From NCBI GenBank assembly GCA_964393275.1, contig CAYMTA010000009.1, positions 53,544 to 117,543 of the forward strand: a DNA stretch of 64,000 nucleotides, in the 5' to 3' direction. Source of the stretch: an uncultured Geminicoccaceae bacterium. GTDB taxonomy: Bacteria > Pseudomonadota > Alphaproteobacteria > Geminicoccales > Geminicoccaceae. Under the pieces are notes generated by a model. The model had not been told where the DNA came from. It ran no database searches and saw only the letters and a list, made by a program, of their open reading frames with translations. Positions 450 through 33,410 of the stretch are shown piece after piece. Within the stretch, counting starts at the first letter, position 1. Every line of letters starts with the position of its first letter. A program made the translations under genes and the position numbers.

Positions 450-833
450 ATGCGTATGATTGCACTATCGCTCGTCTCGGGCGTTTGCCTGCTGGCCGCG
501 ACATCGGCCAATGCCGAAGGGGTAGCCCTCACCGATCACCAGCTCGACCAGGTGACCGCCGGCGCTCTCGAGCTTGGCGTCAGCCAATTGACGATGGGAA
601 CCATGTCTGCCAGCCGTTCGTTCGTCGCCTCGCCGCTGCTCCGCCAGGCAGTCAATGGCAGCCCAGCGCAACCTGACGAGAACCCACCCGTGCCTGCACA
701 GCCGGGCTTGCTGGAGATCATCTCGGGCGCATACTCCGATCAGAACAACGGCCAAGAGATTAGCAAGGCTCCTGTGCTAGGAAAGCTGTTCCTGTCACTC
801 CAGGTCTTCGGCCAGACTCCTTCTGCCCCATAG
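450..833 (+). CDS. Small secreted protein, VTAG-motif family paralog 1
   Basis: Internal ATG of the tracked ORF 255..833, preceded by GGGAG. Signal peptide MRMIALSLVSGVCLLAATSANA, then EGVALTDHQLDQVTAG (motif nt 528-563). Confidence 0.7.
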   Translation: MRMIALSLVSGVCLLAATSANAEGVALTDHQLDQVTAGALELGVSQLTMGTMSASRSFVASPLLRQAVNGSPAQPDENPPVPAQPGLLEIISGAYSDQNNGQEISKAPVLGKLFLSLQVFGQTPSAP

Positions 834-909: not shown

Positions 910-1356
910 ATGTCGCTCCTGAAAAAGGCGAGCGTTCTGTCAGCCTGTCTGCTGGCGACCGCCTCGATCGCCAACGCCGAGCAGGTCCGGTTGTCCATTG
1001 GCCAACTCGATCATGTCACAGCCGGCGCGATCTCGCCAATCTCGCCAATCTCGTCCATTTCGCCAATCCCGCCGATCGGTGGTGGGGCTGAGGCTCCCTC
1101 GCCCGGGGACCCGCCGGCGTCGACACCTGGACCGTCGGCACCCCCACCGGTTCGACTCACCCGGTCTGTGGGTGATGGCTCGGCTATGGCTTATGTGCCG
1201 ATAACGCCGGCCGGATCGATCACCGAGATCGGTCTCCGCGTCACACCCGGGCCCAATGGAACATCGGGCACCGCCTATGTCCGGGTGTCGTCGGAAGGCG
1301 GCGGCCCGATCACCTTGCCCGGCGTCAGCGCCACGGTTGTCCACAGCGGCAAGTGA
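910..1356 (+). CDS. Small secreted protein, VTAG-motif family paralog 2 (ISP-repeat, Pro-rich)
   Basis: Internal ATG of ORF 862..1356, preceded by GGGGGAAG. Signal peptide MSLLKKASVLSACLLATASIANA, then EQVRLSIGQLDHVTAG (nt 991-1026), followed by ISPISPISSISPIPPI. Confidence 0.7.
   Translation: MSLLKKASVLSACLLATASIANAEQVRLSIGQLDHVTAGAISPISPISSISPIPPIGGGAEAPSPGDPPASTPGPSAPPPVRLTRSVGDGSAMAYVPITPAGSITEIGLRVTPGPNGTSGTAYVRVSSEGGGPITLPGVSATVVHSGK
1030..1077 (+). repeat. Imperfect 9-bp tandem repeat (5 units, ATCTCGCCA-like) encoding (I-S-P)n
   Basis: Read directly: atctcgcca atctcgcca atctcgtcc atttcgcca atcccgccg atc. Confidence 0.8.
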
Positions 1357-1370
1357 GCTCGGATCAACCT

Positions 1371-3581
1371 CTACGTCGAAGCGCGTGATTGGGAGCAAAA
1401 GCGCTCCCACATCACGCGCAAGGCCCTTTCGATCTCGTGCCCAAAGAGCCGCTGATCGCAAAGCGCCGAGCTTGCCATGGCTTGGCGCTGGGCCGCGCGA
1501 TAATCGGCGAGACGCAATGGCTCCGTTGCCAGGCGGATGGCGATAGCAAGGTAGGCATCGGCGTTGCGCGCCACCCATTCCGGACGTCCGATAGCCCGAA
1601 GCAGGGTCTCGGTTTGCCTCGACACAGGCTGCCAGCCAGGCATGGTGACGATCGGCACTCCCATCCACAGGGCTTCGCAGCTCGTCGCCCCACCGCCGAA
1701 TGGAAACGGATCGAGGGCGATATCGACGTCGCCATACTGGCGCAGCACGGCAGCGTTGTCGGAAACACCACGCAGCTCGAGCCTGCCGTCCGAGACTCCG
1801 GCCCCGCGGATGGCCTCGCGTATCCTGGTCGCGACCGATGGATTGTCCAATGACGGCGACTTCAGGATAAGACGGGCAGTTGGCAACCGCTGGAGCAACC
1901 GGCACCAAAGCGCCAGCACTTCTCCTGTGAGCTTCGCCACATTGTTGAAGCTACCGAAGGTGATCCAGCCCTGGCGCAGCACGGGGGGCTCGGCGGGTTC
2001 CGGTGCGGTTGCCGGCGGCTCGTAGCAGAAGCGGCTGGGCGACAGGCGGATTACCCGTTCCGCGAAGAGCCCCTCCTCGCCCGGTGCAACGGCCACCTCG
2101 TCCATGATCGCATAATCGATCGCCTCCAGGCCGGTGGTGAACGGATAACCCAGCCAGGTTGCCTGGACCGGAGCCGGCTTGAGCGCGAAGCACCCGAGCC
2201 GGTTAAGCGCCGTGTGCCCGGATATGTCGATCAGGATGTCGATGCCGTCGGCGCGCACCTGCTCGGCCAAACGCCGATCCTCCATGCCGACGACCAAGCG
2301 CCAGCCATCCGCCAGCTCCTTGAACCGCGCGGTCATATTGTCTTCGCGGCCATTGCTCGAGTAGCAGATCACCGTGAAACGGCTGCGATTGAGCGCACGA
2401 AAAACAGCCATGAGCCAGTCACTTACCGCATGTCGGCAAAGCTCCGCCGAGACGATTCCGACCCGTAAGGGGCGAGTGGGGTCGGGGTCGTTCTGCCACT
2501 CCGTGAAACGGCCTGTCGGCTGGCCGAACCGTCGTCCCCACGCCGCGTGCTCCCGCGCGAGATCCTCCGGATGTTGGCTTGGATCGTAGAGGAGCGTGAG
2601 CAGCAGATTGCTATGGATGCGAGGATCATTCGGATCGATCGCGGAGGCACGCCGCAGGGCCGCCAGCGCATCGTCGATCAAACCCATGTCCCGCTTGATC
2701 TTGCCGATATTGTTGTAGGCGAAGGCGAAGTCGGGGCGTCGGGCCAGCACATCTTCATAACCTGCCAACGCTTCCTCGAAGCGGCCGAGCATCTCCAGCG
2801 TTTGAGCCCGATAGAAACGCGCGTCGAATTTCTCGGGGCTCAGCTCCAAGGCTCGGTCGAACGCAGCGAGCGCCGCCTGTCCCATCCCGTGGTCAATCTC
2901 GACCAGACCCAGCCCAATGAGAGCATAGACCGACTCCTCATGCTCCAGTGCCTGATCGAAGGCGTCCAACCCCTCCGCATAGCGGCCGAGCGCATGCAGG
3001 GCGTAACCCTTTTCGGCCCACGCACGACCGTGCTCCGGCGCACGCAGAAGAACAGCGTCGAGATCGGCGAGCGCGGCGTCGGGCTCTCCGGCGAGGCGCC
3101 GCGCCCCGGCTCGCGCAACGAGAATGTCGATGGAGCCCGGCACGGCCGCTAAGGCGGAATCGGCGGATGCAATGGCGGCTTCGTGTTGTCCGAGCTCCGC
3201 CAGGATGAGGATGCGCCATCGTTGGGCATCGATCATAGTCGGCTCGAGCTCAGTGAGCGACTCGAGCTTCGCCAGGGCGTCAGCACTGCGCCCAAAAGCG
3301 GTGAGGAGGATGGCAAGATTGTGCAAGGCCGAGACATAGCGCGGGTCCAAGGTGATTGCCCGCTCATAGGCTGCTATCGCCTCGGCCGGTTGCCCGATCG
3401 CGGTCAGGATGAACGCCTGAACACCATGGACGCGGGCGTACTCCGGATCCGCTTGGCTCGCCTCTCGCCAAAAGGCCTCGGCGCGGTCGTTCTCTCCCTG
3501 GTTGCACGCCGCCACGGCCAGATCGAGAAGCATGTCCAGCTCCGACCGTTCCCCGGACATCGCATGGCCAACCTCACGCAT
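1371..3581 (-). CDS. TPR-repeat protein with C-terminal GT41 (SPINDLY/O-GlcNAc-transferase-like) glycosyltransferase domain
   Basis: 736 aa with no signal peptide. The N-terminal half has many TPR-like repeats (AxxxYxxAlxldP pattern). The C-terminal half has the OGT/SPY-type pattern (GSFNNxxKL..., LDPFPFGGGATSCEALWMGVPIVT). Confidence 0.85.
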   Translation of the reverse strand: MREVGHAMSGERSELDMLLDLAVAACNQGENDRAEAFWREASQADPEYARVHGVQAFILTAIGQPAEAIAAYERAITLDPRYVSALHNLAILLTAFGRSADALAKLESLTELEPTMIDAQRWRILILAELGQHEAAIASADSALAAVPGSIDILVARAGARRLAGEPDAALADLDAVLLRAPEHGRAWAEKGYALHALGRYAEGLDAFDQALEHEESVYALIGLGLVEIDHGMGQAALAAFDRALELSPEKFDARFYRAQTLEMLGRFEEALAGYEDVLARRPDFAFAYNNIGKIKRDMGLIDDALAALRRASAIDPNDPRIHSNLLLTLLYDPSQHPEDLAREHAAWGRRFGQPTGRFTEWQNDPDPTRPLRVGIVSAELCRHAVSDWLMAVFRALNRSRFTVICYSSNGREDNMTARFKELADGWRLVVGMEDRRLAEQVRADGIDILIDISGHTALNRLGCFALKPAPVQATWLGYPFTTGLEAIDYAIMDEVAVAPGEEGLFAERVIRLSPSRFCYEPPATAPEPAEPPVLRQGWITFGSFNNVAKLTGEVLALWCRLLQRLPTARLILKSPSLDNPSVATRIREAIRGAGVSDGRLELRGVSDNAAVLRQYGDVDIALDPFPFGGGATSCEALWMGVPIVTMPGWQPVSRQTETLLRAIGRPEWVARNADAYLAIAIRLATEPLRLADYRAAQRQAMASSALCDQRLFGHEIERALRVMWERFCSQSRAST

Positions 3582-3760: not shown

Positions 3761-4135
3761 TCACGGTTGTGAGAACGACACCGAGCCGCTAACCGCCAAG
3801 GTGCCGCCCGAACGAACCCGACCGTTGTTGTTCAGGGAAGCGGCATCAATCTGGTTGGTGGCATAACCCTGCGTCGTGCGCACCGAGCTGAGCGAGGTGC
3901 CGATGGTGGCCGTGTTCGACGTGTTGCTCTTGCTCTCCGAAATCACGACCGCCTTGGTGGTGTTCCTGGTACGGACAGGACCGGTGATACCGAGGGCCAA
4001 ATCCAGATCCAGGTTGAGACCGGCGGTCACACCGTCCATCTGGCTGGCGCTGAGCTTCATGGGCTCGGCAGCCATGGCGCTGGTCGCCAGCAACGTGACG
4101 GCCGCACCGGCGAGAAACAGATTCTTCATCGACAT
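3761..4135 (-). CDS. Small secreted protein, VTAG-motif family paralog 3 (Ser/Thr/Asn-rich)
   Basis: AGGAGAAG RBS. Signal peptide MSMKNLFLAGAAVTLLATSAMA, then AEPMKLSASQMDGVTAG (nt 4019-4054). The mature part is rich in T/S/N/G/V. Confidence 0.75.
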   Translation of the reverse strand: MSMKNLFLAGAAVTLLATSAMAAEPMKLSASQMDGVTAGLNLDLDLALGITGPVRTRNTTKAVVISESKSNTSNTATIGTSLSSVRTTQGYATNQIDAASLNNNGRVRSGGTLAVSGSVSFSQP

Positions 4136-4212: not shown

Positions 4213-4240
4213 GTCCGGCCGGGCCATTGCCCGGCCGGAC
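4213..4240 (-). terminator. GC-rich stem-loop at the stop of paralog 4 (no U-tract)
   Basis: GTCCGGCCGGG-ccattg-CCCGGCCGGAC, an 11-bp perfect stem abutting the TAG stop. Confidence 0.4.
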
Positions 4241-4593
4241 TAATTCGCAAAAACACCTGTGAGGACGCCACCACCACCAGCAGCCGAGGTGATGCCGACC
4301 CCGCTGGCCTTGACGGAGGTCTGAGAGATGGCGAGCGCCTGAAAGTCACCCGACGAGGACGGCGGCGTCAACAACACGCTTCCCTCCGTCTGGGTCAGCG
4401 AGACCTGATAGAGGGTGATCGACGCGCCGCGGGCTGTCGCCAGTCCCGTGCGAGAAATCGCAAAACCACTCCAGAGACCCGCCGCCGTGACCGAATCCAG
4501 CGATGCTGCATCCAGCCTGACCGGCTCGCCGGCAAGCGCCACGCTGCCGACGCCAAGGAGGGCGATGCCCACAAGTCCGTTCAAGATGCGCAT
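4240..4593 (-). CDS. Small secreted protein, VTAG-motif family paralog 4
   Basis: Internal ATG of ORF 4240..4743. Signal peptide MRILNGLVGIALLGVGSVALA, then GEPVRLDAASLDSVTAAG (nt 4477-4515). Confidence 0.65.
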   Translation of the reverse strand: MRILNGLVGIALLGVGSVALAGEPVRLDAASLDSVTAAGLWSGFAISRTGLATARGASITLYQVSLTQTEGSVLLTPPSSSGDFQALAISQTSVKASGVGITSAAGGGGVLTGVFAN

Positions 4594-4801: not shown

Positions 4802-5254
4802 TTAAAAGATCGGGAACTCGCTGGCAACCGATGCCATGCCCACCGCGGCGACCTGCGCCGAGAAGAAGCCGGAGCCGTTAATTCTGACATTGATCGGAAT
4901 GGTCCAGACCTTCTGCCCGACGACATTGGTTGCGCCCACGCTCGCCGTTGCGGACGGCGGTGGTGCCACGCCACCAATGCCTATCGCCTTCGCCACGGCG
5001 ACGCCCTTCGTGACCGACAGCGACGGATTGCTGGTGCCCACCACGGTGCTCTCGAACGAGGCTTCCGAGCCCACGGTGCCCCAGGCTTGAGCGGCACCAT
5101 TCAGCGTGAAGCCGGAGACGGCGCCCGCGGTCACCGAGTCCATCTGGACCGCGTCGAGCCGCATGGGCTCGGCGGCCTGCGACGAGACGAGCGGCAGCGC
5201 CACACCCAAGGCGGCCAGCAGCGCCGCCCTCTTGGGGAAACCGGAAATCCGCAT
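4802..5254 (-). CDS. Small secreted protein, VTAG-motif family paralog 5
   Basis: Internal ATG of ORF 4802..5314. Signal peptide MRISGFPKRAALLAALGVALPLVSSQA, then AEPMRLDAVQMDSVTAG (nt 5123-5158). The C-terminus ends in ...EFPIF. Confidence 0.7.
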   Translation of the reverse strand: MRISGFPKRAALLAALGVALPLVSSQAAEPMRLDAVQMDSVTAGAVSGFTLNGAAQAWGTVGSEASFESTVVGTSNPSLSVTKGVAVAKAIGIGGVAPPPSATASVGATNVVGQKVWTIPINVRINGSGFFSAQVAAVGMASVASEFPIF

Positions 5255-5404
5255 CGCGTTCACCTCTCTATACTTCTCTGTCTCAGGCCGTCCTGGCCGA
5301 AGGAACCCATCCAACCGATCGCCCCGACATCTAAAATCCGGAGGCCGTGGTGATCAGAACCTTGTGTGGGGAAGATGCCAGCATTTTCCCCAATCGCGCA
5401 ACTT

Positions 5405-5431
5405 GTTCAAAAGGTCATACGACTTTTGAAC
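5405..5431. promoter_or_regulatory. Perfect 9-bp inverted repeat GTTCAAAAG-N9-CTTTTGAAC in the divergent low-GC intergenic region
   Basis: Read directly. Lies between paralog 5 (minus) and the C39 peptidase gene (plus). The TTAAGCTTAA palindrome at 5451-5460 is nearby. Confidence 0.5.
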
Positions 5432-5737
5432 CATTGAGCCGCGTCGAGGATTAAGCTTAACAGCCCGACACTTAATGGCTGGATGGAACAAGGAGTGATT
5501 TAAACTTATAGTTTAATCGCATCAGCCGCCGATGAACTTCTCGCATCGGGCTGGCACAGCCTGCCATGCCGGGAGCGCCGACGGACAGGCGATTCTTCGG
5601 GTCTGGGGCGCCAGATGGTTGCTTGGTCGCCCGGCGTGGCATTAGGGTAACGACCGGTCGCGTTCGCCATGAGCGGCATGCGCGGGAGTTGACCGTTTCG
5701 ACGGTTGATCTCTATCCCGCGTGGAGGAGGGAAAGTT

Positions 5738-6367
5738 TTGACGCACGCGAGCAGGCGGAGGTTTCTCGTCGGCGGTGCTCTTTTGGCGATGGGCGCTACC
5801 ACGCCGGGCTTAGCCGCGGCGCGGTCGGTCGAGAGCCTCAACGAGCGGCGCCACCATCAGGTCGTGATTCAGGAATTCGACATCAGTTGCGCCGCCGCCG
5901 CGCTGGCGACGCTGCTGACCTATCAGCATGGCGACCCCGTAACCGAGCGCCAGATCGCGCTGGGTCTGATCGATCGGCCGGAATACATCGAGAACCCGGC
6001 CTTGATCCGCCTGCGTCAGGGCTTCTCGCTGCTCGACCTGAAGCGCTTCGTGGATGGCCGTGGCTACGAGGGCATCGGCTTCGGCCAGCTCAGCTACAGC
6101 GATCTGCTCGAGCGGGCGCCGATCATCGTGCCACTCGACCTGCACGGCTTTCGACATTTCGTGGTTTTTCGTGGCGAGCTGGGCGACAGCGTCCTGCTCG
6201 CCGACCCGGCTTTCGGCAATCGCACCATGAGCCGGGAACGGTTCGAGCAGGCCTGGATCGATTTCCCGCAGATCGGCCGGGTCGGCTTTGTCGTCGAGCG
6301 GCGCGATGGCCTGATTCCGCCGAACCGCCTGGAGCCGACCTTGGCCGAGTTCCTCGTCATTCGCTGA
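5738..6367 (+). CDS. Stand-alone periplasmic C39-family cysteine peptidase (Tat signal)
   Basis: TTG start 6 nt after GGAGGAGGG. N-terminus is THASRRRFLVGGALLAMGATTPGLAAA (twin-arginine). Has the catalytic-type pattern QEFDISCAAAALATLL (Gln...Cys), and later HFVVF and ADP (His/Asp). Confidence 0.8.
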   Translation: MTHASRRRFLVGGALLAMGATTPGLAAARSVESLNERRHHQVVIQEFDISCAAAALATLLTYQHGDPVTERQIALGLIDRPEYIENPALIRLRQGFSLLDLKRFVDGRGYEGIGFGQLSYSDLLERAPIIVPLDLHGFRHFVVFRGELGDSVLLADPAFGNRTMSRERFEQAWIDFPQIGRVGFVVERRDGLIPPNRLEPTLAEFLVIR

Positions 6368-6391
6368 CCCTCATCAGAAGTGGTAGACTTC

Positions 6392-7570
6392 ATGCACCGT
6401 CGGCAACCGACCTCGACACGAGCACCGAACCTGCGGATCACGACCGTGGCGACGGCCGCCCTGCTGCTGCATTTGTCCGGCCCCGTCGCGGCCCAGGACA
6501 CAGGCACGGTCAGCGACCAGACCCTGCAGGAGGAGCTCAAGGCTCGCGACGCCGTGATCATCGAGCTGATGCACCGGGTCGACGAGCTCGAGCGGCGGCT
6601 GGGGGGAACGGAGGCGCCACCGGTCGCGGCGAAGGCCGCGCCGGCCCAGCCCGGGGAAGCACCGCCACCGGTCGAATCCGCCGAGGCGCCAGCCCCGGCA
6701 CCCGCCTCTCGTGGCCTGATCGATGTCGACGAGCTCGCCGCGGAGCGTGCGCTGGAGCGCACCCTGGTCGATGTGGGCGCGCTATTGCTGCCCGCCGGCC
6801 AGTCGGAGCTCGCGCCGGCGGCCGGCTTCACGCGACGCGATTCGAACTTCCCCACCCTCATCGGCGGGCAGGTCGTCAATGCGAACACCGAGCGCAACGA
6901 ATTCGCCTTCGACCTGGGCCTGAGCGTCGGACTGCCCTTCGATTCGCAGTTCGAGCTCAACCTGCCGTTCGATCTGGTCAACGAGCAGGGCAATCTGGAC
7001 ATCAACGGGGGCGTCGCGAGCTCAACCGAGCGCACCGGCTACGGGCTCGGTGACATCACGCTCGGCTTTGCCAAGACGCTGCTGCGCGAGGGTGAATGGC
7101 GGCCCGACCTCGTCGGCCGCGTCGTCTGGGACACGGCCACGGGCGATCAATTCGACGACGGGGTCTACCTCGGCAACGGCTTTCACCAGGTCAGCGGGCA
7201 GCTCGTCGCCGTCAAGCGCCAGGACCCGCTCGCCTTCGTCGGCGGCTTCACCTACAGCTACGCGTTCGAGGACGACGATATCAAGCTGGGCAGCGAGTAT
7301 GCCTTGTCGCTGGGCGCGGCCCTGGCCCTCAGCCCCGAGACATCGCTGAACGTCGCCCTCAATCAGACCTATTCCGACGATATCGAGGTCGACGGCGAGA
7401 AGGTCAACGGCAGCGATCAGCTGGCCGCCAGCTTCGACTTCGGCGGCTCGGCGATTATCGCGCCGCGCACGCTCTTCAGGTTGAACACCAGCATCGGCCT
7501 GACCGATGACGCGCCCGACTACTCCGTCCGCGCCACGGTTGCCTACCGCTTCAACACACCATTCTTCTGA
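6392..7570 (+). CDS. Outer-membrane beta-barrel protein with N-terminal coiled coil and Ala/Pro linker (FapF-like / MetA-pathway-type barrel architecture)
   Basis: Signal peptide ...LLLHLSGPVAAQD. Heptad-like segment DQTLQEELKARDAVIIELMHRVDELERRL, then an AP-rich linker. Alternating beta-strand pattern ending ...ATVAYRFNTPFF with a terminal Phe. A GTG at 6380 is an alternative start. Confidence 0.7.
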   Translation: MHRRQPTSTRAPNLRITTVATAALLLHLSGPVAAQDTGTVSDQTLQEELKARDAVIIELMHRVDELERRLGGTEAPPVAAKAAPAQPGEAPPPVESAEAPAPAPASRGLIDVDELAAERALERTLVDVGALLLPAGQSELAPAAGFTRRDSNFPTLIGGQVVNANTERNEFAFDLGLSVGLPFDSQFELNLPFDLVNEQGNLDINGGVASSTERTGYGLGDITLGFAKTLLREGEWRPDLVGRVVWDTATGDQFDDGVYLGNGFHQVSGQLVAVKRQDPLAFVGGFTYSYAFEDDDIKLGSEYALSLGAALALSPETSLNVALNQTYSDDIEVDGEKVNGSDQLAASFDFGGSAIIAPRTLFRLNTSIGLTDDAPDYSVRATVAYRFNTPFF

Positions 7571-8351
7571 CGGCCGCGAGGTGGCGTTGCGCCAGGAGCG
7601 CCACCTCGGTCCGGTTCTTGGCATTCAGTCGCCGCATGATCTGCCGGACATGCACCTTGACGGTGCTCTCGGTCATCCGCAGGCGGGTGGCGATCACCTT
7701 GTTCGGATGCCCTTCCTGGAGGATCTCCAGAACATCGACCTGCCGCGGCGTCAGCTCTTGTGACAGCGCCGGGCCGTCCGGGGCCGACTCGCTCGCCACG
7801 TCGCCGAGGGCGGGACGTCCCTCCTGCCTGAGCCACTGGCTGACGAGATCGCCCGGCACGAACATGCCGCCGGCCTGCACCAGGGACAGCGCCCTGCACA
7901 TCAGCGGCGCCTCCTCGGAGGTCGCGATGAAACCCATCGCACCGGCCGCCAGGGCGTTGCGCGCCTCCTCCGGCTCGGTGCGATCGGACAGCACGACCAC
8001 CGGCACCGAGTCGTGGTTGCCGACGAGGCGATCGAGGTCCGCGCGGGTGGCCGGGTCGTCGATCGACAGGCTGCCGACACTGTAGATGATCAGCGAGGGC
8101 CGGCCTTCCGGGGGCAGACCCTCGCGGGTCAGCTCGTCGACGGACACGGCGACGATCTGCTGGCTGAGCGCATCCGAGGCGCAGAGATAGCGCGAGATGC
8201 AAACCCGGCTGAACGGCCGGGGGTCGACGAGAGCCAGCCAGGGGTCGGGGCGCGGGGCAACCCCTGCTGGGACCGCACGAATCGCCCCGGAGGCTCTCGT
8301 TAGGGTGTCAGTGCCTGGCAGTGGATTGTTCGCTGATGACGTCGCTAACAT
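7551..8351 (-). CDS. LuxR/FixJ-type transcriptional regulator with degenerate receiver-like N-terminal domain
   Basis: C-terminal HTH: LTPRQVDVLEILQEGHPNKVIATRLRMTESTVKVHVRQIMRRLNAKNRTE. The ATG at 8351 is preceded by AAGGGGAG. The receiver-like region lacks an obvious DD pair or phospho-Asp context. Confidence 0.75.
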   Translation of the reverse strand: MLATSSANNPLPGTDTLTRASGAIRAVPAGVAPRPDPWLALVDPRPFSRVCISRYLCASDALSQQIVAVSVDELTREGLPPEGRPSLIIYSVGSLSIDDPATRADLDRLVGNHDSVPVVVLSDRTEPEEARNALAAGAMGFIATSEEAPLMCRALSLVQAGGMFVPGDLVSQWLRQEGRPALGDVASESAPDGPALSQELTPRQVDVLEILQEGHPNKVIATRLRMTESTVKVHVRQIMRRLNAKNRTEVALLAQRHLAAVRRMVC

Positions 8352-8741
8352 GATCGTCTCGCTCCCCTTCGATCCCGGCAACCAAAGTGGTAGGCGGAAC
8401 CCTTGCAGCTACGGGGCACTTAACCCTACCGATCGAGACGAGCATCTCCGGTAGAGTCTTTATGCTTAAGGCGCATTAATACAATCGATGAAATCGTCAT
8501 CTTTTGCAAGGGAGTATCGCTCACTCCCGCTGTAGAATAGTACCTACGGCGATGTTCAACCATCGGGCAATCGGCGCAATGACGCTGCGCCTTAATCGTC
8601 CATTAGCTTCATGGAATATCTCCGACTTAACCAAAGGTAGTGGGCCGCAGGTGAGAAAGCTCGCGGTACGATCGAATGCTCCTGCCGACGCACGTCGCCC
8701 GGCAATTGCCGCGTTCACGCTACGGTTGCTGTTTTCACATT

Positions 8742-33333: not shown

Positions 33334-33410
33334 GCGCCCTTAGCTCAGCTGGATAGAGCAGCTGCCTTCTAAGCAGCAGGTCGCAGGTTCGAGTCCTGCA
33401 GGGCGCGCCA
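33334..33410 (+). tRNA. tRNA-Arg (anticodon UCU)
   Basis: Cloverleaf read by hand: acceptor GCGCCCT/AGGGCGC, D arm GCTC..GAGC, anticodon stem GCTGC/GCAGC with loop CTTCTAA, T arm GCAGG-TTCGAGT-CCTGC, encoded CCA. Confidence 0.9.

Follow-up and report, generated by a model that had tools for sequence, protein, structure and literature searches.

A predicted exported C39 peptidase of an uncultured Geminicoccaceae bacterium and its place in a putative Fap-like secretion module

What does a C39 peptidase cut when it is exported on its own, with no fused ATP-binding cassette (ABC) transporter? The question is raised by a gene for a 209-residue protein at positions 5738-6367 of a 64,000-nucleotide stretch of DNA (the window) from an uncultured Geminicoccaceae bacterium (GenBank assembly GCA_964393275.1, contig CAYMTA010000009.1). 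Here, we propose that this protein serves a Fap-like, two-step secretion module as its processing enzyme and would cut five tagged neighbours before their export through a FapF-like channel. We put the probability of this reading at about 0.68. It is based on the fold and conserved catalytic residues of the peptidase, on the channel gene that follows it, and on leader sequences that lie in register in five small proteins encoded nearby.

Fold and catalytic residues of the peptidase

5738-6367, forward strand: C39 cysteine peptidase gene of the FapD/FilB/NapP type, 209 amino acids (aa), TTG start, TGA stop (PF03412, FilB and FapD models of NCBIfam, AlphaFold2 (AF2) and Foldseek)
5870-5890, forward strand: QEFDISC motif with the oxyanion-hole Gln45 (5870-5872) and the nucleophile Cys51 (5888-5890), invariant in 20 homologues and aligned to Q...C of LahT (6mpz)
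6155-6205, forward strand: catalytic His140 (6155-6157) and Asp156 (6203-6205), invariant in 20 homologues; 'rhfvvfrG...lladpa' aligns to 'NHFVVLKG...INDPA' of LahT

The translation reads (M)THASRRRFLVGGALLAMGATTPGLAAA up to the predicted cleavage site and continues with RSVES, that is RSVESLNERRHHQVVIQEFDISC..., followed later by QEFDISC, His140, and Asp156. Residues 41-173 match Peptidase_C39 (PF03412) at 41.3 bits against a cut-off of 22. An alignment of 20 homologues (58-90% identity) shows no variation at Gln45, Cys51, His140, or Asp156. The profile of this alignment finds LahT (6mpz) in the Protein Data Bank (PDB), and the Q...C, H, and D motifs align to the catalytic residues of LahT, whose triad is Cys27/His101/Asp117 (PMC6363468). 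The AF2 model has a mean predicted local distance difference test score of 78.6, with values above 90 in the core and low values in the signal region. The best Foldseek matches of the model are the peptidase domain (PEP) of PCAT1 (7n87), LahT (6mpz), and ComA (3k8u), with E values of 1.6e-6 to 1e-5 and target-normalised template modelling (TM) scores of about 0.7. A sequence-only reading of this DNA had proposed a C39 peptidase with the Gln/Cys and His/Asp elements intact, to be superimposed on ComA and LahT; the family match, the conservation of both Cys and His, and the match of the model to the peptidase domains of PCAT1, LahT, and ComA bear this out. From the sequence comparisons and the model, the product would thus be an active C39 "double-glycine" peptidase with a papain fold that is exported and belongs to the FapD/FilB/NapP type.

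Among the NCBIfam models, FilB (NF050078) scores highest at 98.8 bits, followed by FapD (NF058616) at 89.5 bits. Because these scores are far below the respective equivalog cut-offs of 475 and 330 bits, the protein is a homologue of both FilB and FapD and an orthologue of neither. FapD had been named as the closest parallel, which understates the relation: the two peptidases are homologous, and the next gene encodes a FapF homologue. There is no ABC fusion. The protein ends at the TGA codon at 6365-6367, read directly from the sequence, the next gene encodes an outer-membrane barrel, and the NHLM ABC model covers 47 residues only. The last 35 residues (aa 175-209, window 6260-6364; ERRDGLIPPNRL...EF..LR) form a tail that is highly conserved family-wide and is lacking in the C39 domains of peptidase-containing ABC transporters (PCATs). 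Its pattern is ...GRVGFVVERRDGLIPPNRL.P...EF..LR, in which P194, P195, L198, and F205 are invariant, and it might dock onto the channel.

Start codon and upstream region

5723-5731, forward strand: Shine-Dalgarno sequence GGAGGAGGG, followed by the 6-nt spacer AAAGTT and the TTG codon at 5738-5740; the GGAGG core is kept in orthologues
5689-5717, forward strand: promoter-like element, TTGACC (5689-5694), 17-nt spacer, CTATCC (5712-5717); TTGACCG and CTATC are invariant in five orthologous upstream regions

Whether the peptidase is exported depends on its start codon. The public calls for the identical protein (P0001) give 192 aa from an internal ATG at 5789, by which the signal peptide is lost; calls of this kind, which would wrongly predict a cytoplasmic enzyme, were made for the peptidase and three close relatives (P0001-P0003 and P0010). 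The locus was aligned at the DNA level with four orthologous loci from metagenome-assembled genomes of Geminicoccaceae and other alphaproteobacteria. The start codons TTG/TTG/GTG/TTG/ATG share one column, 5-8 nt past the conserved GGAGG, and the column of ATG 5789 reads GCG or GCC in two of the orthologues, so that this start is not conserved. The in-frame G+C content at third codon positions (GC3) is 0.45 at 5705-5737, 0.76 at 5738-5788, and 0.84 over the remainder of the gene. Orthologues called at 208-209 aa open with M..[SN]RRxFL. These data agree with the sequence-only reading, which had placed the start at the TTG 6 nt past GGAGGAGGG, and the start so supported lies 5' of the twin-arginine motif.

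Two other starts were considered and rejected. With the TTG at 5705, the Shine-Dalgarno sequence would come to lie within the coding region, and the added stretch has a GC3 of 0.45 and lacks conservation at the protein level. A start at ATG 5789 would give a cytoplasmic protein of 192 aa (MGATTPGL...) with no signal. The gene callers chose it in the four cases above, but the upstream column and the Shine-Dalgarno sequence are conserved in its place, GC3 is coding-like from 5738, the residues encoded 5' of it are conserved as protein, and all full-length members of the family have signals. We consider a cytoplasmic form of this kind barely credible; judged by the alignments, the ATG 5789 start in the databases is a miscall.

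The TTGACC/CTATCC element hardly varies among the five orthologous loci, in contrast to the diverging DNA on either side. It may be bound by a regulator or serve as a promoter, and in the latter case the 5' untranslated region of the peptidase gene would be only about 15 nt long. A strict sigma-70 promoter scan of 5300-7800 called no promoter, this element included. A terminator scan of the same region gave a single terminator-like site, inside the peptidase gene, which is no more than in shuffled sequences.

Five small neighbours carry a putative leader behind a Sec signal

4802-5254, reverse strand: small secreted protein, 150 aa, with a signal for the general secretory (Sec) pathway, propeptide AEPMRLDAVQMDSVTAG, and a 106-aa mature part; candidate substrate
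4240-4593, reverse strand: small secreted protein, 117 aa, with Sec signal, propeptide GEPVRLDAASLDSVTAAG, and a 78-aa mature part; candidate substrate
3761-4135, reverse strand: small secreted protein, 124 aa, with Sec signal, propeptide AEPMKLSASQMDGVTAG, and an 85-aa mature part; candidate substrate
450-833, forward strand: small secreted protein, 127 aa, with Sec signal, propeptide EGVALTDHQLDQVTAG, and an 89-aa mature part; candidate substrate
910-1356, forward strand: small secreted protein, 148 aa, with Sec signal, propeptide EQVRLSIGQLDHVTAG, and a 109-aa mature part rich in Pro, Gly, and Ser; candidate substrate

Each of these five paralogous genes has a Shine-Dalgarno sequence and an ATG start and encodes a classical Sec signal ending in AxA. 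The signal is followed by a propeptide of about 16 residues, (E/G)-(E/P)-x-x-L-x-x-x-Q/S-[LM]-D-x-V-T-A(A)-G. Its core, L-x4-[LM]-D-x-V-T-A-G, places Leu at -12, Leu or Met at -7, Val at -4, and small residues at -2 and -1, which is the register of the classical double-glycine leader. The published leader consensus is L-12 xxx E-8 L-7, and LahT has pockets for V-4, L-7, and L-12 (PMC6363468).

The motif was sought behind hydrophobic signals at related loci. Scanning a single genome of each species confirmed 281 loci, and all neighbourhood counts given here refer to the best 80 of these. There were 241 matches in 72 of the 80 loci, of which 209 lie within 5 kb of the peptidase gene, mostly upstream; all five small proteins of the window fit the motif. 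The controls gave one match in reversed sequences and none in the other 44 kb of the window. Among the 241 matches, L-12, M/L-7, and V/I-4 each occur in 74% and G-1 in 100%. Position -8 is Gln in 44% and Glu in 10%; at -2, Ala occurs in 81% of the matches and Gly in 19%. The leader-bearing neighbours thus provide unambiguous candidate substrates in this branch of the family, and the sequences make it likely that the five small proteins are substrates of the peptidase.

The mature parts of 78-109 residues are rich in Ala, Gly, Ser, and Thr (together 47%) and not cationic. They form recurring subfamilies common to different proteobacterial classes, some with short repeated strand-like motifs such as TVNFDTNVxKxVDIxKTVxL. 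The five paralogues stay in the same order in related genomes. Scans of the five proteins, the 124-aa one included, against Pfam and NCBIfam gave no family match, and a homologue search with the 124-aa protein gave nine matches, all named hypothetical. None of the five proteins carried an annotation in any of the sources consulted.

The downstream gene encodes a FapF-like channel

6392-7570, forward strand: FapF-like outer-membrane channel, 392 aa, starting 24 nt past the peptidase stop (PF13557, NCBIfam FapF, PDB relatives, AF2 and Foldseek)

The channel matches PF13557 and, at 55.5 bits, the NCBIfam FapF model; since the equivalog cut-off is 700, it is a homologue of FapF and not an orthologue. 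In sequence, the only PDB entries significantly related to it (E ≤ 1e-6) are those of FapF, 5o65, 5o67, and 5o68. The AF2 model consists of a signal, a coiled-coil helix (aa 42-70), a disordered Pro/Ala linker (aa 72-109), a plug helix (aa 114-128), and a β-barrel. FapF is also its best Foldseek match (E 6.5e-19, TM 0.80-0.83), ahead of the COG4313 channel 4rl8. By analogy with the FapF-type channels, which are trimers with a 12-strand barrel, the channel may be trimeric. Among the 80 loci, 70 have a homologue of it adjoining the peptidase gene; several of the others are on short contigs. The sequence-only reading had described a stand-alone exported peptidase. The peptidase held up, but the channel and the five leader-bearing neighbours, which explain the gene, had been missed.

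Proposed processing and export mechanism

Here, we propose the following mechanism. The peptidase would reach the periplasm by means of its 28-residue signal, in this clade probably by twin-arginine translocation (Tat), as suggested by the SRRRFL motif and the weakly hydrophobic h-region. The five small proteins would cross the inner membrane by Sec and would then still bear the propeptide, which has some 16 residues, ends in Ala-Gly, and is hydrophobic at -12, -7, and -4. The peptidase would bind the propeptide and cut after the Gly. The mature Ala/Gly/Ser/Thr-rich proteins of 78-109 residues would leave through the FapF-like channel and, once outside, would probably build an extracellular fibre or matrix. 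This structural role is favoured, by analogy with Fap, because immunity-like genes are lacking, the five paralogues are kept in order, and a LuxR-type regulator and a tetratricopeptide repeat (TPR)-GT41 glycosyltransferase are linked to the cluster.

Several points weigh against this scheme. The leaders in the window end in Ala-Gly, whereas the canonical ends are Gly-Gly, Gly-Ala, or Gly-Ser. FapD is the only tested relative, and its substrate may be FapE or FapF itself (PMC5557850, PMC12822426). Likewise, the target of the peptidase here might be the channel, with its Pro/Ala linker or plug as the site, or else a different periplasmic factor; secretion would then be gated in this way and the small proteins would go unprocessed. 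Rouse et al. proposed that FapD cleaves the FapF linker, and the Fap proteins are without canonical leaders (PMC5557850); the channel here, too, has a disordered linker. However, leaders lie in register on the neighbours and co-occur with the peptidase in 72 of the 80 loci, and leaders of just this kind are what C39 domains recognise (PMC6363468). Inspection of the translated linker showed no leader motif, the regular-expression scan covering, in that region, only motifs behind a hydrophobic signal. A gating role of this kind therefore appears very unlikely to us.

The module might instead export bacteriocin- or microcin-like peptides, or autolysis peptides as proposed for the Neisseria nap island, with the peptidase as a toxin-maturation enzyme. 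Class II microcins are rich in Gly, Ala, and Ser and have GG leaders, and Ala, Gly, Ser, and Thr likewise make up nearly half of the mature parts here. The small proteins evolve fast, as the nine homologues found suggest, and NapP/NapF homologues go with GG-motif peptides (PMC11798529). However, the cluster contains no genes for small membrane "immunity" proteins, and its intergenic gaps are too short for them. The paralogues keep their order, and the mature-domain subfamilies with repeated strand-like motifs recur across proteobacterial classes. In size and charge, the mature parts differ from the Naps, which have 16-36 aa and isoelectric points of 9-10. Genes for a CsgD/NarL-like regulator and for a glycosyltransferase are also linked to the cluster. 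A toxin function is thus unlikely, and we retain processing of structural proteins as the preferred interpretation.

The leader/peptidase/channel arrangement spans Alpha-, Beta-, and Gammaproteobacteria, Acidobacteriota, and Gemmatimonadales. It may reflect a widespread, so far undescribed route, in which a Sec signal plus an EP-x-x-L-x3-Q-[LM]-D-x-V-T-A-G propeptide hands small proteins to the C39 peptidase and the FapF-type channel. The propeptide would then be an outer-membrane export signal, and the Geminicoccaceae peptidase would have switched from Sec to Tat. We offer this extended hypothesis tentatively, as somewhat short of an even bet. If correct, it supplies a substrate-recognition rule for FapD-type peptidases, and it suggests a general two-step export of small proteins across the outer membrane. 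Because the candidate substrates bear an in-register leader, the substrate question of FapD-type peptidases becomes directly testable by peptide cleavage.

Twin-arginine motif and route of export

5738-5821, forward strand: signal peptide, aa 1-28 (MTHASRRRFLVGGALLAMGATTPGLAAA), with the twin-arginine motif SRRRFL at 5750-5767 (inspection; clade conservation)

Residues S5-R6-R7-R8-F9-L10 fit the Tat consensus S/T-R-R-x-F-L-K, with V in the position of K. Gly, Ala, and Thr are abundant in the h-region, and the last residues of the signal are A-A-A. Every full-length member of the family has an N-terminal signal, and the distant relatives have classical Sec signals. The motif was examined in the closest homologues, with about 64% identity or more (the near clade, P0004-P0052, loci L005-L012; 46 full-length sequences). 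In this clade, 44 of the 46 sequences have [RK]R; position +2 is F or L in 77%, and position +3 is L in 45%. Of the 46, 24 fit the strict pattern [STN][RK]R.[FL][LAGSV], compared with none of 60 distant homologues. The mean best 12-residue Kyte-Doolittle hydropathy is 2.02 in the near clade and 2.47 in the distant Sec-type relatives. Since the motif is found in the near clade and not in the 60 distant homologues, the Tat-like signal is a conserved clade-specific character and no one-off. In the window, the peptidase alone has a Tat-type N-terminus.

A series of observations argues against the use of Tat. The PF10518 Tat model gives the peptidase 16.9 bits, below its cut-off of 22.7, and the TIGR01409 scan gave no match; the orthologues reach 17.6-21.2 bits with PF10518 and 13.4-15.6 bits with TIGR01409 (cut-off 16.7). 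KR replaces RR in about 30% of the near clade, and RR is also present in several Sec-type relatives, some with strongly hydrophobic, Sec-like h-regions. Sec signals in high-GC genomes often have arginine-rich n-regions, and the G+C content of the window is 68%. A search of the window for TatA-like open reading frames (ORFs) or other tat genes found none. Most of the family clearly uses Sec, so the C39 peptidase fold does not need Tat, and an active peptidase folded in the cytoplasm could in principle cut the pre-proteins ahead of their export.

The signal may thus be an ordinary Sec signal with an arginine-rich n-region, in which SRRRFL is fortuitous or vestigial, the peptidase being exported unfolded; the rest of the proposed module would stand. 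In addition to the points above, the signal is short (28 aa), and its c-region lacks a conserved basic "Sec-avoidance" residue, the orthologues having Q. Against this, the conservation goes beyond the RR pair: the flanking residues S (-1), F/L (+2), and L (+3) are kept over about 46 diverged sequences, together with the strict motif and the lower hydropathy that set the near clade apart. KR variants of Tat motifs are known to function. One Sec-type homologue scanned as a control had no PF10518 or TIGR01409 match at its N-terminus, unlike the near clade with its subthreshold matches. An ordinary Sec signal is an appreciable possibility, if well short of even odds, and we lean modestly towards a dependence on Tat; export in a folded state would follow from it. 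The signal had earlier been called a textbook Tat signal. The SRRxFL motif is indeed present and clade-conserved, but "textbook" goes too far for a signal that both Tat hidden Markov models leave below their cut-offs, in a family whose members mostly use plain Sec signals. If Tat dependence is true, the protein would represent the first FapD-type peptidase to be exported in a folded state, and one protein family would show a clean natural switch from Sec to Tat.

Other genes of the locus

1371-3581, reverse strand: cytoplasmic TPR and GT41 glycosyltransferase between the two groups of small genes (PF13844, 150 bits, plus TPR repeats)
7551-8381, reverse strand: LuxR/GerE-type (CsgD/NarL-like) regulator with a weak receiver-like N-terminal domain (PF00196, 62 bits)

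The TPR-GT41 protein resembles protein O-GlcNAc transferases and, weakly, HMW1C/NGT. Its gene is present in 16 of the 80 loci, mostly of Geminicoccaceae and other alphaproteobacteria, and is conserved in two related loci, L001 and L004. We speculate that the enzyme might glycosylate the Ser/Thr-rich small proteins of the locus. The regulator gene is convergent with the channel gene, and their 3' ends overlap by 20 nt. A homologue of the regulator is encoded near the peptidase in 35 of the 80 loci. Its Response_reg match is 17.4 bits against a cut-off of 30.2, and from its sequence the N-terminal domain may be a pseudo-receiver.

In L001 (1617-4448) and L004 (598-3516), a protein of about 950 aa with Cadherin_4, Cadherin_5, and Big_9 repeats is encoded directly upstream of the small-protein genes. 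The counterpart of this region would fall just ahead of position 1 of the window. The cadherin-repeat protein may be another surface component of the locus. Rfam and tRNA (ARAGORN) scans found nothing relevant to the locus; the sole match in the window is an unrelated tRNA-Arg (TCT) at 33334-33410 on the forward strand.

Family size and distribution

A homologue search with the peptidase gave 3961 proteins at E ≤ 1e-3, many of them named "predicted double-glycine peptidase" by the Joint Genome Institute. A profile search of 1.84 billion representatives gave 265 clusters (50% identity) at E ≤ 1e-30 and 1331 at E ≤ 1e-10. The best 80 loci come from Geminicoccaceae and other Rhodospirillales, Methylobacter and other Methylococcales, Nitrosospira, Nitrosomonas, Noviherbaspirillum, Acidobacteriota, Gemmatimonadales, and others. 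Among the family representatives P0261-P0383, about a quarter of the best ones are 330-760 aa long. It was considered that all members of at least 330 aa are peptidase-channel fusions, and this was rejected: only 6 of 40 bear a FapF-like barrel after the peptidase, as fusions or merged gene calls, and the others have unrelated C-terminal extensions, some of them Sel1 repeats.

Colocalised fapD/fapF homologues in five further phyla were reported by Rouse and colleagues (PMC6173800), and the NapP/NapF pair of Neisseria was described in 2025 (PMC11798529). With these published pairs and a family of this size, a free-standing exported C39 peptidase can no longer be called unusual, as it had been from the sequence alone. 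Peptidase-channel pairs are already known, and what had gone unreported is the twin-arginine-type signal and the clearly tagged substrates. Literature searches on a Tat-exported C39 peptidase, of which no description was found, on a substrate rule for "periplasmic C39" peptidases, and on the characterisation of FilB/FilC returned nothing specific past the Fap and Nap papers.

Comparison with known systems

FapD and FapF of the fapABCDEF system of Pseudomonas, which makes a functional amyloid, are among the nearest known counterparts. FapD is periplasmic, its Cys is needed for the secretion of FapC, and the C38A mutant abolishes secretion via FapF (PMC5557850). The question of its substrate dates from 2013-2017 (PMC5557850), and a review of December 2025 states that the substrate is "thought to" be FapE or FapF (PMC12822426). 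Both peptidases are free-standing, exported C39 enzymes with the catalytic Cys and are homologous in sequence (89.5 bits), and the one here is encoded beside a FapF-type channel built of a coiled coil, a linker, a plug helix, and a barrel. In contrast to the fap operon, the locus has no homologues of FapA, FapB, FapC, or FapE and no Asn/Gln-rich amyloid repeat protein, and its gene order differs. FapD has a Sec signal, whereas the signal here is Tat-like. Canonical GG leaders are absent from the Fap proteins, whereas five neighbours carry an in-register leader here.

The comparison loci of Acinetobacter, Cupriavidus, and Neisseria were examined by reading their ORFs by hand. A more Fap-like locus is found on the chromid of Cupriavidus metallidurans CH34 (L086, 5692-7227), which encodes, in this order, a 511-aa secreted protein rich in Asn, Thr, and Gln, a C39 peptidase, and a 490-aa coiled-coil barrel. 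The motif filter, applied there to the first 80 residues of ORFs with 70 aa or more, picked out no small ORF with a leader, as would fit a division of the family into "Fap-type" and "leader-type" loci.

The Neisseria nap island (PMC11798529) also combines a signal-bearing C39 peptidase (NapP; 35% identity over 69% of the query), a FapF homologue (NapF), and small proteins with a double-glycine motif. In the Nap model, the GG-motif peptides undergo cleavage inside the periplasm and are then exported, and the proposed function is autolysis (PMC11798529). The Nap peptides are cationic, with 16-36 aa in the mature form; they are described without a Sec signal, and their passage through the inner membrane is explained by a holin-like protein. 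In contrast, the candidate substrates here have mature parts of 78-109 aa, are uncharged, and have an explicit Sec signal before the leader, and by analogy with Fap their role would be structural. An ORF scan of the Neisseria comparison locus (L087) did not recover the Nap peptide genes.

In the filABCDEF locus of Acinetobacter baumannii, a putative pilus locus known at the annotation level only, the gene after that of FilB (98.8 bits, 41% identity) encodes a barrel protein, FilC, whose N-terminal region is long. It differs in extra ORFs similar to FilD, FilE, and FilF of 556, 425, and 649 aa (L085), and there are no ORFs of such sizes here. FilA (L085, 6663-7532) has a signal peptide followed by the acidic motif MQSMDDAALSAATGQDG, which is related to L-x4-[LM]-D-x-V-T-A-G but is not the same. 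Judging from this motif, FilB may process FilA.

The C39 domains of the PCAT and ABC transporter maturation and secretion (AMS) proteins (ComA, LahT, and PCAT1) share the fold and the catalytic Gln, Cys, His, and Asp with the peptidase here. Their substrates likewise have an amphipathic leader with hydrophobic residues at -12, -7, and -4 that ends in a pair of small residues (PMC6363468). However, these domains are cytoplasmic and fused to ABC transporters and cut during one-step export, whereas the peptidase described here is free-standing and exported. It also has the conserved 35-residue tail and a barrel partner, and the leaders of its candidate substrates end in Ala-Gly and are placed behind a Sec signal.

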